The position numbers and the translations under genes were made by a program. Source: a bacterium (lineage in GTDB: Bacteria; Myxococcota_A; Bradymonadia; Bradymonadales; Bradymonadaceae). From it: a DNA stretch of 64,000 bases. The notes under the pieces were generated by a model, which did not search any database, was not told where the DNA came from, and saw only the letters and a list, made by a program, of their open reading frames with translations. Shown piece after piece: positions 54,178-61,125 of this stretch. The first letter of the stretch is position 1, and the number at the start of each line of letters is the position of its first letter. The DNA lies in the NCBI GenBank assembly GCA_030427705.1, contig JAUIBR010000002.1, positions 156,631 to 220,630 on the forward strand, in the 5' to 3' direction.

Positions 54178-54368
54178 GGCTTCCTCGTCAAGTGGTTCTG
54201 CGGGGAAAGACAGCGTCCGAACCACAAAGTTCCGAGAAAAACCAAAATTTTTTTCACCCGTTTCGCGAGGTCGTCCGTAGTGGTTGAACATTATCGACGA
54301 TTCATTAGAATGCGTGCGCCATTCAGATGTATGCAAGCCCCCTACAAGGGCCGAGTTTAGGTTACACT

Positions 54369-56870
54369 ATGAACTTCCAGTTGCGGGCGTTCTTCGCTCT
54401 TCTCATTTCGTTGCTTTTGATCGGATGCGGTGATGACACTGCGGAACCCGGCACCAAATCTTGTGATTTTGGGGAACGATTGAATCCAATCACCGGTCAG
54501 TGCATTCCGGTGCAGACGGCGAACAACGTTAACAACGTCAACAACGTCAACAATCAGAATAACGTCAACAACGTTAACAATCTGAATAACGTCAACAACA
54601 CGAACAACGTCAACAACGTCAACAACACCAACAACATGAACGACATGGGCATGGACGACGGTGTGAGCGAGCGTTGTGACCCCGCGTTGGACTCCGATAA
54701 TGACGGCCTGACCAACGACTGCGAGTGCATTCTGGGCACGTCCAGCTACGAGATGGACTCCGACAATGACGGCTTGAACGACAACGTTGAAGACGCAAAT
54801 GGCAACTGCTCAGTTGACCCAGGCGTTGAAACCGACCCTCGCAGCGCCGACACCGATGCCGACGGCGCAACGGACAGCGAAGAGATCGCAGCCAACTCGA
54901 ATCCACTCGATCAAGACTCCGACGATGACGGTGTTTTGGATGGTGCAGAGATTGCGTCCGGCTGCATGGACCCTAACTCCGAAGACACGGACAACGACAC
55001 GCTGCCAGACTCGGTGGAAGACGGCGACCTGAACGGCCAAATCGGCAACTGCGTAAATCGCGTGTACAACCCGACCTGTGCGCTTGGTGAAAGCGACCCG
55101 TGCCAGGCCGACACGGACGGCGACGGAACGCCCGACGTCGATGAAGCGCAGTACCGCGCATGCCGCCCCGAAGACACGAATAACCTCGCCACGCCAAACC
55201 TCTTGTTGAACATGGTTGGCGACTACCAACTGGCATACGATTCAGGCGTGACCACGTCGGTCGTTACATCAAGCGGTGGTGCGGTCGAAGCACACGTCTT
55301 CGAAGATATCACCCACAAGTACACCGGATTCATCGCGTCGCTCACACCTCCAGGTGGTGAGACGCTGCCAAGCCGATTGGATGACCATATCGTCAGCGAA
55401 ATGCAGGCACTCTACCCGAGCGCAGTTCGACGCGTCGGTGGGCGACAGGTGACGACGCATGACGGCTTCAAAGCCAACGTGGGCGCGATCGTCGATTTGC
55501 CAAACAACACCGCGCTGCACACGGCACGCGACACGATCCTTGCCCGCCTCGCAGGGCAGGCACCTGGAAACCTTAGCAACACGCTGACGGGCACGCTCAA
55601 CGGCAACAACTCGGAACCAACGCTCTTGGTCTACGAAGTTATCGCCCGTAGCCAGACGCAATACATCGTCGTTGGCGCAGTTGTCACTCTTTCTGACTAC
55701 CAAAATGACGCTGCCTTCTCAGGCATCCGGGTCGATGACCTCACCGGTGGAACCGCTGTCGCAGGCTCCATGGAAATGCTCACTGTCGATTGCGTTTCGT
55801 ACCGCGTGACGGCCAAACCAAAAGTTGACGTCATCATCTCGATCGATGGCTCAGGCTCGATGAGCGACGAACAGGCTGCATTGCAGAACTTCGCCGTCGA
55901 CTTCACGACCTTGCTGACTAACTCGAACCTCGATTGGCGGACCGCTGTGACGCGTCCGGATTGCGGAAGCAACGCGGCGTTGTCGCAAGAGGCACAGAAC
56001 CTGTTTGGCGGCGCAAGCTGCGGACCATCGATTCCGATTTCGATTCCTGGCTTCCCAGGCATCGGCGGTGACACCGGCGAGCTCGTCAACGGCGACTTCA
56101 CGGCAGACCCAATGGAATTGCGGCGACGATTGGACCCAGGTGTGTTCTCGGGCGGAGGTGAGTACACCATTTCTGCCCTGACCGCCGCGGCCGACCGCGC
56201 GCTGCCTCGTGACAACCAGAATCCAGCGAAATTCCGTGAAGATGCTGCGGTTATTCTGATTGCCATCACCGACGAAGAGGACGAGTTCTTCCAAGACGAC
56301 CTGTCGTTCGGCAACACCAGCAATATCACGCTGACGATGGCCGAGCAGACGGAGCTCGAGAATAAGACGTCGGATTGGGTCAACTTCCTGCTTAAACCTG
56401 AGCTTGGCGCGACCGCATTCGGTATCGTCTGGCCAACCGGTGAGCAGTGCCAACCTAACGGTTCGTTCGTGGCACACGCAGTGTCCCACATCGCCAACGA
56501 AACCGGTGGAACCGTCGGCTCCATCTGTCAGGCGGATATCACCAACACATTGCGAGTCATCGCCGAAGCCACAGCGGGTATCGCATCCGGACTGCGCCTT
56601 CGTGGTGTGCCGATTGCTCCAACCATCGAAGTCATCAACGGCTCGGCGACGACCGGCATGATCCTGCCGCTCAACCGAAGCCGTACTCAGGGCTTTGACT
56701 ACGACTCGATCGTCAACCGCGTTTCATTCACCGGCGCAAACACACCTCAAACTGGCGACCGCGTCGTGATTCCATACCGACGATGGGAAAACAGCGTGTT
56801 CGTATGTACCGCCAACGACGAATGCCCTGCCGAGCAGAAGCTCAAGTGTGTTGACGGCGAGTGCCGATGA
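54369..56870 (+). CDS. Lipoprotein with thrombospondin type-3-like Ca-binding repeats and a VWA domain
   Basis: MNFQLRAFFALLISLLLIGC-GDD then an NNVNNVNNVNNQNNVNNVNNLNN... linker. Repeated DxDxDGxxDxxE units (DSDNDGLTND, DTDADGATDSEE, DSDDDGVLDGAE, DTDNDTLPD, DTDGDGTPDVDE). VWA MIDAS is VDVIISIDGSGSMSDE. Confidence 0.6.
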   Translation: MNFQLRAFFALLISLLLIGCGDDTAEPGTKSCDFGERLNPITGQCIPVQTANNVNNVNNVNNQNNVNNVNNLNNVNNTNNVNNVNNTNNMNDMGMDDGVSERCDPALDSDNDGLTNDCECILGTSSYEMDSDNDGLNDNVEDANGNCSVDPGVETDPRSADTDADGATDSEEIAANSNPLDQDSDDDGVLDGAEIASGCMDPNSEDTDNDTLPDSVEDGDLNGQIGNCVNRVYNPTCALGESDPCQADTDGDGTPDVDEAQYRACRPEDTNNLATPNLLLNMVGDYQLAYDSGVTTSVVTSSGGAVEAHVFEDITHKYTGFIASLTPPGGETLPSRLDDHIVSEMQALYPSAVRRVGGRQVTTHDGFKANVGAIVDLPNNTALHTARDTILARLAGQAPGNLSNTLTGTLNGNNSEPTLLVYEVIARSQTQYIVVGAVVTLSDYQNDAAFSGIRVDDLTGGTAVAGSMEMLTVDCVSYRVTAKPKVDVIISIDGSGSMSDEQAALQNFAVDFTTLLTNSNLDWRTAVTRPDCGSNAALSQEAQNLFGGASCGPSIPISIPGFPGIGGDTGELVNGDFTADPMELRRRLDPGVFSGGGEYTISALTAAADRALPRDNQNPAKFREDAAVILIAITDEEDEFFQDDLSFGNTSNITLTMAEQTELENKTSDWVNFLLKPELGATAFGIVWPTGEQCQPNGSFVAHAVSHIANETGGTVGSICQADITNTLRVIAEATAGIASGLRLRGVPIAPTIEVINGSATTGMILPLNRSRTQGFDYDSIVNRVSFTGANTPQTGDRVVIPYRRWENSVFVCTANDECPAEQKLKCVDGECR

Positions 56871-57781
56871 GCAAGCCCTCGCCCGGTCAGCTGGCTTTCG
56901 CCGCGACCGGGTTTCTTTGCATAGCCACCCCGATACTTCTGGCGCTCTGCAATGTCCGAATCGAGCCCTCCTTCCTTTTCAAGGTCGCGGGGGCTGTCGT
57001 GTTTCTGCAGCTAGTCTCTATTCGGTACCGCAAACAGGATGAGAAGCCGCTTGTCGGGGCCATCAACGGCGCGGCATTGCTGATGGTCTTCACGACCGTC
57101 TATGCGGTCGCACACTACTGCCTGCCGCACATGGCGGGCGTGTTCTACGACGACACATTCGCTGCGATTGACGAAGCGATGGGCATGAGTGCCCGCGACA
57201 TCACCCTCTGGGCGCGTGAGTCCTGGGTCGATGATGCGCTGGCGAAAATCTACTACGCGTTCTTCTTTCAGTTTGCCCTCTACATTCCGTATGCGTCAGG
57301 CGTCCGGCGCGACTGGTACCGGATGTATGAGTGCCTCTCCAATATGTTTATCTCCGCGCTCATCGGCTTGGTTATCTTTGCCATCTGGCCGGCGAAGAAC
57401 ACGGTCTGGTTCTACAAGTTGGATGATATTCACGGGATGGTTGGCATCGCAGAGCAGCTGCAGCTACTGCAGGACGGCACGTTCGGACTACTCACCCATC
57501 AGAACGCATTGGGGCTTATGCAGTTTCCTTCGTTCCATGTCGCGATTGCCGTCATCCTGTGGTGGGACATGCGCTATGAACACAAGGCTGTGCTGGCGAT
57601 TGGTGGCGTTTGGACCGCTGTGATGAGCGTTTCAGCGGTTACCGCCGGCGCGCATTATGTCATCGATATCTGGGGCGGGATCGCCGTGGCAGCCATCAGT
57701 ATCTTGGCCACGAAATTGCTGACACGCCCACGAAATGAGGATGAGCTGGACCCCGTCCCGCTCTGGAGGCGCGACAGCTAG
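56867..57781 (+). CDS. PAP2-superfamily membrane phosphatase/transferase (putative)
   Basis: Six TM helices. PSFHVAIAV and HYVIDIWGG resemble PAP2 motifs 2 and 3. ATG 56867 overlaps the upstream stop (ATGA); the track start 56861 is a GTG. Confidence 0.5.
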   Translation: MSKPSPGQLAFAATGFLCIATPILLALCNVRIEPSFLFKVAGAVVFLQLVSIRYRKQDEKPLVGAINGAALLMVFTTVYAVAHYCLPHMAGVFYDDTFAAIDEAMGMSARDITLWARESWVDDALAKIYYAFFFQFALYIPYASGVRRDWYRMYECLSNMFISALIGLVIFAIWPAKNTVWFYKLDDIHGMVGIAEQLQLLQDGTFGLLTHQNALGLMQFPSFHVAIAVILWWDMRYEHKAVLAIGGVWTAVMSVSAVTAGAHYVIDIWGGIAVAAISILATKLLTRPRNEDELDPVPLWRRDS

Positions 57782-57811
57782 TCGATGATGCCTCGGTGAG
57801 CGAGCCATCTA

Positions 57812-57960
57812 CTCGCATATATTTTCGACTTATCACGTCTTTTTACCCATAACTCACATATATTTACGACTTATATGAAACATGTGTTTGATATTTAACT
57901 CGTATTAATTTACGATTAAAGCTGAATTTACCGTTTTACTCGCACTTATTTACGACTTAT
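57812..57960 (+). promoter_or_regulatory. Low-GC hipBA upstream region with four ~23-bp direct repeats (consensus ACTCGCATATATTTACGACTTAT); candidate operator array/promoter
   Basis: Copies at ~57813-57835, 57853-57875, 57900-57921 and 57938-57960. Spacing is 40, 47 and 38 bp (about four helical turns). The last copy ends in the hipB ATG. The region is ~32% GC against a ~59% background. Confidence 0.5.
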
Positions 57961-58282
57961 GAACGCAGAAACCTCACTCCAACAAGTTGCCCAGCGTCTG
58001 CGCCAACACCGAATCAACCGGCAACTCACCCAGGCTGAGCTCGCCGAAAAGGCCGGGGTCACGAAGCGAACGATCGAGAATTTGGAGAGCGGGAAGTCCA
58101 CGCAGTTTCTGACCGTGCTGAGGACGATGGAGGCTCTCGACCTACTTGAGAACATCGATGTCGCCATTCCGGAGGTCCCCGTCAGCCCCTTGTTGAAGCA
58201 TGCGCGGGACGGGGAGCAGCCACAAAGGGTTCGAAAATCCAAGCCCACGGCCGACACCGAATGGTCATGGGGGGATGAATGA
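57959..58282 (+). CDS. hipB: HipB-like XRE-family HTH antitoxin
   Basis: LRQHRINRQLTQAELAEKAGVTKRTIENLESGKS is an XRE HTH. 107 aa. Stop overlaps the hipA start (ATGA). Confidence 0.8.
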   Translation: MNAETSLQQVAQRLRQHRINRQLTQAELAEKAGVTKRTIENLESGKSTQFLTVLRTMEALDLLENIDVAIPEVPVSPLLKHARDGEQPQRVRKSKPTADTEWSWGDE

Positions 58283-59568
58283 CCACGGCTGCAGTCCGGC
58301 TTTGGGGCCGTCAAATCGGCGCGGTGTCGACTGTAGACGACCGCGACTACTGTGCATTTCAATACACGCCAGAGTTCGCAGCGAGCGGGATCGAGGTCGC
58401 GCCAATCTCGATGCCTCTGTCCAACCGAATCTACACATTCCCTGCCCTGTCCCGGACGACGTTCAATGGCCTACCCGGCCTGCTGTCCGACTCACTGCCC
58501 GACAAGTTTGGCAATCGACTCATCGATGTATGGCTCGCAAACCAAGGCCGGAAACCCGAGTCCTTCAACGCAGTCGAGCGGCTTTGCTATATCGGAAGCC
58601 GCGGTATTGGCGCGCTGGAGTTTGAGCCAGCGGTCGGTCCAACCACCGCAAGTGAACACTTGGAAGTTGCACAATTAGTTGAGCTCGCATCCACGATTCT
58701 CACGCAACGTGAGACGCTGTCCGGTTCGTTCGAAGACCCAGCTATGCGAGCAACGTTGTCCAGCATCCTTCGCGTCGGCACATCCGCCGGGGGCGCCCGT
58801 GCCAAGGCGCTCGTCGCATGGAACCCGGACACCGGCGAGGTACGCTCGGGGCAGATCGATGCCGAGGGATTTGGCTACTGGCTCCTGAAATTCGACGGGG
58901 TTTCAAACAACCGCGACAAGGAGCTCGCCGACCCGAAAGGCTTCGGTGCGATAGAGTATGCCTACTATCTTATGGCGACCGCCGCTGGCATCGACATGAT
59001 GGAATGTCGCCTGCTTGAAGAAGGCGGAAGACGTCATTTTATCACCCGCCGGTTCGACCGGCCTGATGGGCATCGGCTGCATATGCAATCCCTGTGTGCG
59101 ATGGCCCACTTCGACTTCAACGACGCCGGAGCTCATAGCTACGAACAGGCCTTTCAAGTGACTCGTGACATCGGTCTTTCCAAGGTCGACGTCGAGAAAC
59201 TCTACCGGCGTATGTGCTTCAACATCGTGGCCCGAAACCAGGACGACCACGTGAAGAACATCGCCTACTTGATGGACCGACACGGAAACTGGTCTCTCTC
59301 GCCCGCGTACGACATGACCTACAGCTACAACCCGCAGGGGGCGTGGACCGCTCGCCATCAGATGTCCATGAATGGCAAGCGCAGTGACTTCACAAAAGAC
59401 GACTTCGTGGCAAGCGCCAGGACGGCCGGATTGCCCCAAGGACGGGGCGCACGAATCCTGGACGAGGTCCGAGAGGTTGTAGGAGAGTGGAAAAGCTTCG
59501 CCAAGGAGGCGCGCATACCCGCTAAGCGATACAACGCCATCGCAAAAACGCATCGATTGTCATTCTGA
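58279..59568 (+). CDS. hipA: HipA-family Ser/Thr kinase toxin
   Basis: HipA N-terminal coupling domain, then the catalytic motif ARNQDDHVKNIAYLMDRHGNWSLSPAYD (HipA_C). 429 aa. Confidence 0.85.
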   Translation: MTTAAVRLWGRQIGAVSTVDDRDYCAFQYTPEFAASGIEVAPISMPLSNRIYTFPALSRTTFNGLPGLLSDSLPDKFGNRLIDVWLANQGRKPESFNAVERLCYIGSRGIGALEFEPAVGPTTASEHLEVAQLVELASTILTQRETLSGSFEDPAMRATLSSILRVGTSAGGARAKALVAWNPDTGEVRSGQIDAEGFGYWLLKFDGVSNNRDKELADPKGFGAIEYAYYLMATAAGIDMMECRLLEEGGRRHFITRRFDRPDGHRLHMQSLCAMAHFDFNDAGAHSYEQAFQVTRDIGLSKVDVEKLYRRMCFNIVARNQDDHVKNIAYLMDRHGNWSLSPAYDMTYSYNPQGAWTARHQMSMNGKRSDFTKDDFVASARTAGLPQGRGARILDEVREVVGEWKSFAKEARIPAKRYNAIAKTHRLSF

Positions 59569-61125
59569 TTCGGAATCCGATGACATGCCCAACATGTCGA
59601 ACTGCCACTCGTGGCCCATGTTGGCGTCGGTGATGGTCTCGTAGTCTTTGGCCAAAAACTTCATACGCTCAGCCGACACGAAGTTTCCTTCTTGAGCATT
59701 CATTTCTTCCATCAGCTCATCGATATGCGCTTTGTGCTCAGGAATCGCTGGGTCGTAAACGGGTTTTCCGTCGATCTTGAATTGCTCCAAAATCCCGCGC
59801 CAACGCTCAGTGTCGGGCTTGATCTCGTGGTCGGAACAGATGCCGCTTCGCATGTACGCGACGCAGTGATCGTACACGTTTAACATCGACCGCAACGCCC
59901 GCTTGGAGCCGGTCGTATTAACCATCACAATCCCTTTCGGATTCAGATGGTCTTTCATCAACTGCATGAATTCTTCGCTCAACAACGTCGACGAGAAGCC
60001 GCGCTGGTGAAATGACGTGTTGCTAATGATTGCATCGAACTTTCGATCGTTGGTGTGCATCCAACGACGGGCGTCATCCTCAACCAGTTCAACCTTGGGA
60101 TGGTCCAGCAACACCGCGCTCTCGGGGTATTTGCTGATGAGGTCGAAGTACCCAGGACTGATCTCGATGATCGTGACTTTTTCGATGCCAGGGTGTTCGA
60201 CCAGTACACGCGACCAGGAACCCGTAGCCATGCCAACGACAAGCACGGTCTTCGGGTCTTCATGAAAGGCACTCAGCGAATATGGCCGCACGATCCCATT
60301 CACATCATCGATGAGGTCGATGCTGAAGGTGCCGTCGTAGACACCGCCCCCGATCGCGACGTCCTCTTCGTCCACCGCGATGAAGCCTGACTTGGTCTCG
60401 AAGACGTATTTGAACTCTTGGGATTCGTACTCGGGACCGTAGTAGAGCTTCTCGAGCATGCCGCTGTAGACCGTGCCCGTGAGCCCAACAACAACCGCAA
60501 TACACGCCACGAGCGCTCCCGCCGCGCCGGCGAGCTTCGCCTTATCGGGGCGTGTGCTCGCGAATAGAACAAACGCCAAGGCGAGTCCGATGATCGTTAG
60601 GACCATCGCGATGGAGGCCGTGGACGCCACATCCAACCAAATGAATCCTGTGATGAGGCTGCCTCCAACCGAGCCAGCAATATTAGCCACGTACACGTAC
60701 GACAGACGTGACCCGACGTGCGAGTCTGCGGCGATGCCGTAGTGCATCAACACAGGCAGCTGCGCCCCGAAGATGCATGCGGCACCAAACACAAAGTAGA
60801 GCGCGGTAAACCCGGGTATTGCAACATGGAGTGTCACCAGCCATGCCATCGCCGGAATCACCAACCAACCAGCCAGCGCCCCGCCTCCGATGAACATCGC
60901 GAGCGAGCGCAGGGCTTCAGGCGAATACGTTGCCTTTCCGTTTGTGAAGCGTTTCGACCACTTTGCGCCGAGCGCGATACCGGCCAGGAACAGCCCAAGC
61001 AACATCGGAAACGCCGCAGCAGAACCGGCGGTGCTCCAGGTAAACAGGCGAGCCCAGAGAATCTCGTACGAGAGGCTGATGAACCCAGAGGCGAAGGACA
61101 GTCCCAGGACGATAAACCAGGTCAT
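59560..61125 (-). CDS. Spermidine-synthase-like aminopropyltransferase with N-terminal 7-TM domain
   Basis: N-terminal TM helices. C-terminal SpeE-like methyltransferase fold (VLVVGMATGSWSRVL, KVELVEDDARRWM, FDAIISNTS). Confidence 0.55.
   Translation of the reverse strand: MTWFIVLGLSFASGFISLSYEILWARLFTWSTAGSAAAFPMLLGLFLAGIALGAKWSKRFTNGKATYSPEALRSLAMFIGGGALAGWLVIPAMAWLVTLHVAIPGFTALYFVFGAACIFGAQLPVLMHYGIAADSHVGSRLSYVYVANIAGSVGGSLITGFIWLDVASTASIAMVLTIIGLALAFVLFASTRPDKAKLAGAAGALVACIAVVVGLTGTVYSGMLEKLYYGPEYESQEFKYVFETKSGFIAVDEEDVAIGGGVYDGTFSIDLIDDVNGIVRPYSLSAFHEDPKTVLVVGMATGSWSRVLVEHPGIEKVTIIEISPGYFDLISKYPESAVLLDHPKVELVEDDARRWMHTNDRKFDAIISNTSFHQRGFSSTLLSEEFMQLMKDHLNPKGIVMVNTTGSKRALRSMLNVYDHCVAYMRSGICSDHEIKPDTERWRGILEQFKIDGKPVYDPAIPEHKAHIDELMEEMNAQEGNFVSAERMKFLAKDYETITDANMGHEWQFDMLGMSSDSESE

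Follow-up and report, generated by a model that had tools for sequence, protein, structure and literature searches.

The four repeats located directly upstream of hipBA in the 64-kb stretch of DNA analyzed here (the window) very probably represent the four sites, O1 to O4, of a hipBA autoregulatory region whose layout is common to dozens of related hipBA loci. Judged by comparison of these loci, each unit is most likely an imperfect 24-bp palindrome, TAAnTCG(y)(C/A)A-wwww-T(G/T)(r)CGAnTTA, suited to a HipB dimer, and the whole is most likely an ordinary self-regulating toxin-antitoxin promoter, a known kind of device with different parameters. In the first-pass annotation, the units had suggested some other mode of binding or an iteron-like element; because they appear to be palindromes tied to hipB across loci, such a mode is not supported and the feature can be explained by standard toxin-antitoxin autoregulation. 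As a by-product, we obtained a family-level HipB operator class, TAAnTCG-N10-CGAnTTA, which has two pairs of sites 40 bp apart, a start codon without Shine-Dalgarno (SD) sequence and a KRTxE recognition helix, and which supplies DNA probes and mutations for the study of HipA-HipB promoter assembly beyond E. coli and Shewanella. The class is apparently undescribed, as no description of TCG-N10-CGA operators was found in the literature searched, the coverage of which was incomplete.

The repeat array and the hipBA locus

The repeat search returned one direct-repeat family with four 24-nt copies at 57810-57833, 57851-57874, 57897-57920 and 57937-57960, and copies 2, 3 and 4 were 88%, 67% and 88% identical to copy 1, respectively. 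Allowing up to 3 mismatches, the 23-mer consensus matched 3 times, while 100 dinucleotide shuffles gave an expectation of 0.00; no match was present outside the array in the 64 kb. The earlier observation of four repeats of about 23 bp just upstream of hipBA was thus confirmed. The distances given as 40, 47 and 38 bp were measured as 41, 46 and 40 bp from start to start. Copy 4 ends on the AT of the hipB ATG (57959-57961), in agreement with the claim that the last repeat runs into the start codon. When O1-O2 was aligned to O3-O4, the similarity was confined to the operators and the inter-site sequences were unrelated, so there is no evidence of a recent duplication of a pair. The features of the locus are collected in Table 1.

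Table 1. Features of the hipBA locus and its upstream region in the window (bits: score against a symmetrised matrix made from the sites of homologous loci alone)
Feature	Position	Strand	Remarks
PAP2-family membrane protein gene	56861-57781	+	upstream neighbour of hipB
AT-rich intergenic region (PAP2-hipB spacer)	57782-57958	.	177 bp, 34.5% GC, houses the operator array
Putative operator O1	57809-57832	+	CTACTCGCATATATTTTCGACTTA; core TCG 57813-15, CGA 57826-28; 16.5 bits
Putative operator O2	57850-57873	+	TAACTCACATATATTTACGACTTA; left core TCA, one mismatch; 14.5 bits
Candidate promoter	57888-57916	+	TTGATA-17 nt-TACGAT, 9 of 12 consensus match, sigma-70-like; encloses O3
Putative operator O3	57896-57919	+	TAACTCGTATTAATTTACGATTAA; 24.2 bits, top fit to the family palindrome
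Putative operator O4	57936-57959	+	TTACTCGCACTTATTTACGACTTA; ends with the A of the hipB ATG; 21.6 bits
hipB	57959-58282	+	107 aa, XRE/Cro-type HTH antitoxin, predicted repressor; Pfam HTH_19/HTH_31/HTH_3
hipA	58279-59568	+	429 aa, Ser/Thr kinase toxin; Pfam Couple_hipA + HipA_C, full length

The low-GC island reported in the first-pass annotation is real, but its figures (about 32%, in a genome of about 59%) required correction: the intergenic region has 34.5% GC, hipBA about 59% and the whole 64-kb window 56.7%. The locus is of the two-gene hipBA type, with an HTH antitoxin gene in front of a protein that combines an N-terminal Couple_hipA domain (2e-19, profile positions 2-98 of 99) and a full HipA_C kinase core (2e-53, positions 1-213 of 213), and the two genes overlap in the sequence ATGA. 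The matches of the window HipB to the NCBIfam models couple_hipB and HipB lay under the curated cut-offs, and its relatives in the PDB were 4ghj (the closest solved HipB-like chain) and HipB chains; a sequence search of the PDB with the window HipA reached HipT-type chains only. The hipB ATG at 57959 is the first start codon past the in-frame stop at 57923. The window HipB has an N-terminus about 9 residues shorter than that of most relatives (107 aa versus 116-117 aa), and the distance from O4 to the ATG is unchanged despite this. At its 3' end (59560-59568), hipA overlaps by 9 bp with the 3' end of a convergent gene (59560-61125, - strand; a 521-aa membrane protein with a spermidine-synthase-like domain), which leaves no room for an intergenic terminator between them.

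The palindrome shared by homologous hipBA loci

In the 24-mer register starting at 57809, 57850, 57896 and 57936, each unit reads, imperfectly, TAAC-TCG-N10-CGA-CTTA. The best dyad centre was identical in the four copies; 7 to 9 of the 14 positions mirrored about it were complementary, and each site was about 60% self-complementary over 24 bp. Since the dyad in the window alone is weak evidence, relatives were examined. The two nearest HipB homologues (45-46% identity), the only ones detectable by word-based search, both precede a hipA-like ORF and both have an AT-rich upstream region, which carries AATTCG-N10-CGAATT, a perfect palindrome, together with AACTCG-N10-CGATAT in the first homologue and AACTCG-N10-CGAATT in the second. 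HipA is far more conserved than HipB, its homologues amounting to thousands of proteins at about 65% identity, and a genome scan yielded 80 hipA loci from many phyla, all of which have a HipB homologue (31-50% identity) directly upstream; 77 of the 80 loci formed the sample for the upstream analysis.

We counted every dyad made of a 4-mer, a gap and the reverse complement in up to 220 nt upstream of hipB in the 77 loci, with the window excluded. The top dyad was TCGT-N8-ACGA, present in 28 loci versus 0.2 expected, followed by TCGC-N8-GCGA in 26 loci and ATCG-N10-CGAT in 20, and CGCC-N6-GGCG, CGTC-N6-GACG and GTCA-N4-TGAC also ranked high. All top dyads are registers of a single palindrome, TAwnTCGyCAwwwwTGrCGAnTwA. 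Among 164 exact-core sites upstream of homologous hipB genes, the column counts were mirror-symmetric. Sites of the family showed no polarity, since the identity between two of them averaged 0.62 when both were read in one direction and 0.61 when one was inverted. When the matrix built from homologues only was run over the 64-kb window at a threshold of at least 10 bits, exactly four matches were obtained, and these were the four repeats. The bare core TCG-N10-CGA had 66 matches versus 45 expected in the GC-rich window and is unspecific; specificity therefore rests on the full 24-bp matrix and the comparative data.

The position of the sites is conserved as well. There were 206 matrix matches in 20 kb of sequence (260 nt upstream of each hipB) against 8 in the 417 kb elsewhere in the loci; exactly four sites were found in 34 of the 77 loci, three in 12 and two in 14. 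They recur at about -144, -104, -58/-59 and -18/-19 from the hipB ATG, and the corresponding positions of O1 to O4 in the window are -146, -105, -59 and -19. The distances O1-O2 and O3-O4 are nearly always 40-41 bp, whereas in loci with four sites O2-O3 can be as short as 22 bp or as long as 48 bp and is most often 46 bp, and the layout 40-46-40 is the most frequent among homologous loci (41-46-40 in the window). The view that the array is the hipBA regulatory region, in parallel to the four HipB operators of E. coli, is borne out. The idea that the repeats are phased on one DNA face survives at most within the pairs, whose spacing is 40-41 bp; the middle spacing is the variable one. The O2-O3 distances in loci with four sites, which are not phylogenetically independent, fall into groups of 27-29, 35-37 and 42-48 bp, roughly one helical turn apart.

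The low GC content upstream of hipB is a family trait as well (38% in the 160 nt upstream versus 61% in the hipBA coding sequence, 77 loci), and the gene upstream of the array varies among loci, which indicates that the operator array travels with hipB. The average of 61% GC in the hipBA coding sequence is found in hosts of very different phyla, and the module is also plasmid-borne, which is consistent with frequent movement of hipBA by horizontal transfer. Haliea sp. E17 (NZ_JBLWFK010000002.1) carries, besides the four hipB-adjacent sites, an extra pair of strong TCG-type sites at 1705-1768 of its locus (22.9 and 24.5 bits), located at -439 and -399 from the hipB ATG and exactly 40 bp apart. 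This pair might be a remnant or belong to another promoter under HipB control.

The impression of direct repeats in the first-pass annotation has a real, local basis, because the window sites are unusually alike in direct orientation (0.78, versus 0.62 when one copy is inverted; second among 47 loci). In the window, C occupies both 'n' positions (ACTCG...CGACT), and the left inner half-site reads TCGyAT in every copy, the right one TCGTAA. If the units were true direct repeats read directionally, head-to-tail HipB protomers, for example, or another regulator would be arranged on one DNA face, a mode unlike that of E. coli HipB, as proposed in the first-pass annotation. We consider this improbable, since the family sites have no polarity and mirror-symmetric conserved columns around the dyad TCG-N10-CGA with TAA/TTA flanks, copy 3, the most divergent as a direct repeat, fits the family palindrome best, and the solved relatives of HipB, a Cro/XRE-type HTH protein, are dimers that bind dyads. 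Moreover, the asymmetric positions of the window (C at both 'n' positions; left inner triplet yAT, not yCA) are those that are degenerate in the family. The likeness of the window copies in direct orientation, which the palindrome model leaves unexplained, may stem from common ancestry or homogenisation of the sites, or else from recognition that is truly asymmetric, and HipB could contact these sites asymmetrically.

HipB recognition helix, known hipBA operators and a proposed mechanism

The family alignment shows a strongly conserved HTH in HipB, and the window protein shares it (LTQAELAEKAGVTKRTIENLESG), and the recognition helix of the window HipB is K36-R37-T38-I-E40 (KRTIE). The signature KRTxE was present in 58 of 60 loci with at least two sites and in none of the 15 loci without a site (Fisher 6e-14, kinship ignored); these 15 site-less loci, four of which are on plasmids, carry LRTVQ, KNTVQ, VRTLR and other helix variants. 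The TCG-type matrix was not validated on the plasmid relatives (Trichlorobacter, Roseovarius, Roseibium and Hymenobacter; HipA 54-61% identity), which bear other palindromes together with differing HipB recognition helices: GGCC-N6-GGCC upstream of hipBA on the Roseovarius and Roseibium plasmids, TAATG-N14-CATTA on the Hymenobacter plasmid and GCGCA-N6-TGCGC on the Trichlorobacter plasmid. Operator specificity thus appears to diversify within the HipA clade alongside the recognition helix and to turn over quickly within this one clade. Such a joint change of operator and helix is the pattern expected if HipB binds the sites, and from it we infer that HipB is the protein that would bind O1 to O4.

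A close parallel in architecture is E. coli, in which HipB binds its four operators cooperatively with HipA as co-repressor (PMC3920265). In the genome sequence of strain MG1655, hipBA is preceded by four TATCC-N8-GGATA sites at -134, -106, -67 and -39 (spacing 28-39-28), the -35 element TTGACT abuts O3 and the -10 element TATAAT overlaps O4. As in E. coli, the window has four dyad operators directly upstream of hipB in two pairs, with equal spacing inside the pairs and a wider gap between them. In both systems HipB is of the Cro/XRE HTH type and has a C-terminal Trp, and hipB overlaps hipA; the C-terminal W-x-W-G of the window HipB is conserved family-wide and recalls the C-terminal Trp of E. 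coli HipB. The E. coli operators overlap the promoter region, and the parallel in the window is the candidate promoter enclosing O3, which is not significant. The systems differ in the half-site (TAAnTCG versus TATCC), the inner spacer (N10 versus N8), the spacing within pairs (40 versus 28 bp) and the position of O4, which abuts the start codon with no SD sequence in the window and ends 21 bp before the ATG in E. coli. The window proteins share 22% (HipA) and 32% (HipB) identity with those of E. coli K-12, and TATCC-N8-GGATA was absent from 57700-58000 at up to 2 mismatches, which places the window sites in a different specificity class.

The hipBA operon of Shewanella oneidensis MR-1 has four equally spaced GTGTA-N6-TACAC operators with a separation of 34 bp, the fourth of which sits inside the hipB ORF (PMC4150777). 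The window resembles it in having four palindromic operators whose half-site and spacing are unlike those of E. coli and the last of which reaches the hipB coding start; unlike the equally spaced Shewanella operators, the window sites are paired at 40 bp with a family-variable middle gap and have another half-site, and GTGTA-N6-TACAC was absent upstream of the window hipB. Adjacent Shewanella operators are bound without cooperativity (PMC4150777), so that bridging by HipA or HipB is not universal. [quoted passage not shown]

On these grounds, we propose that one HipB dimer would occupy each site through the Cro/XRE-type helix-turn-helix with the recognition helix KRTIE. The sites form two pairs, O1-O2 and O3-O4, with a fixed centre-to-centre distance of about 40 bp within a pair and a variable linker between the pairs (46 bp in the window). 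If the system works as in E. coli, transcription of hipBA would be repressed by HipB, either alone or in complex with HipA, and the HipB dimers within a pair are probably bridged or stabilised by HipA, which would account for the constancy of the 40 bp. O3 and O4 would cover the likely promoter, the transcription start and the start-codon region, and the lack of an SD sequence in front of hipB would follow from the occupation of the last 22 bp before the ATG by O4.

Promoter, translation start and surroundings of the array

The candidate promoter was the only sigma-70-like match of at least 9 of 12 in the region (1 found versus 0.6 expected in shuffles, not significant), and its implied transcription start would lie near 57923. 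Relatives with the 40-46-40 layout have TTGACT right after O2 and TATATA right before O3, with a spacer of 17 nt, and TTGA[CT] was present at -87 in 9 of 20 loci; this conserved TTGACT-17-TATATA flanking O2 and O3 was absent from the window. A strict sigma-70 scan across the family, which demanded A2 and T6 in the -10 element, gave few promoters with an inconsistent start position. Several loci of the classes with a short middle gap have TTGAC just past O3, near -37, from which the transcription start would fall at about the ATG; leaderless transcription is not claimed, as the -10 elements of these short-gap loci are unconvincing.

The first-pass annotation had also noted the lack of an SD sequence in front of hipB and suggested an atypical initiation, and indeed no AGGA/GGAG/GAGG core was found in -18..-4 of the window hipB, where the -12..-7 hexamer is TATTTA. 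Among the 42 loci in which O4 abuts the start codon, just 4 have an SD-like core and 38 lack it, which makes this a family property that is not peculiar to the window locus. The putative leader (57923-57995; -3.4 kcal/mol) folds worse than its shuffles (z = +1.27), and an unstructured leader fits SD-independent initiation of hipB. Translation of hipB, as read from these features, probably starts either on an mRNA that has no leader or, without an SD sequence, on a leader that is AU-rich and unstructured. Whether such a start inside repressor-bound DNA goes together with a HipA-bridged 40-bp complex unlike the 28-bp complex of E. coli is a more speculative proposal, which we regard as rather doubtful; if true, operator occupancy would set both transcription and the ratio of antitoxin to toxin translation.

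It has to be considered whether the repeats act mainly as RNA, in the form of 5' UTR hairpins, a PAP2 terminator or a small RNA. Palindromic operators can in principle form hairpins once transcribed, and just past the PAP2 gene a terminator-like hairpin is located at 57800-57825 (+ strand), in which the stem GCGAG-N7-CTCGC (57800-57816) is followed by the T-rich run ATATATTTTC and the 3' arm coincides with the left half of O1. This role is very improbable, since folding of 57782-57840, which includes this hairpin, was not significantly better than that of shuffles (z = -0.71), the putative leader folds worse than shuffles as given above, and Rfam gave a single match far below threshold at chance level (E = 0.34). 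The conservation moreover follows a DNA dyad with AT-rich variable centres and shows no compensatory stem changes.

The array might also be iteron-like, with a role in replication or partition, or mark one end of mobile or repetitive DNA that lies beside hipBA by chance. Like plasmid iterons, it has several similar units of about 20 bp (four of ~23 bp here) in an AT-rich stretch, and hipBA modules of the family do occur on plasmids, but this origin is scarcely credible because no initiator, rep, par or transposase gene is adjacent (the neighbours being PAP2, hipB and hipA), the units are dyads 40-46 bp apart instead of about 22 bp, Tandem Repeats Finder reported no array for the region and the inter-unit sequence is unrepeated, the array keeps its position relative to the hipB start in unrelated genomes with differing upstream neighbours, and the recurrence expected of a dispersed repeat was found neither elsewhere in the 64 kb nor in 241 million metagenome records, in which the window-specific unit gave 20 isolated singletons (chance level), none in an array and none beside hipBA.

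No tRNA was found in the 64-kb window. The gene at 54327-56870 (+ strand) encodes a protein of 847 aa, predicted to be secreted or a lipoprotein, in which a long low-complexity run of asparagine and valine (NNVNNVNNVNNQNNV) occurs along with a weak match to the bacterial TSP3 repeat, slightly under the Pfam cut-off.
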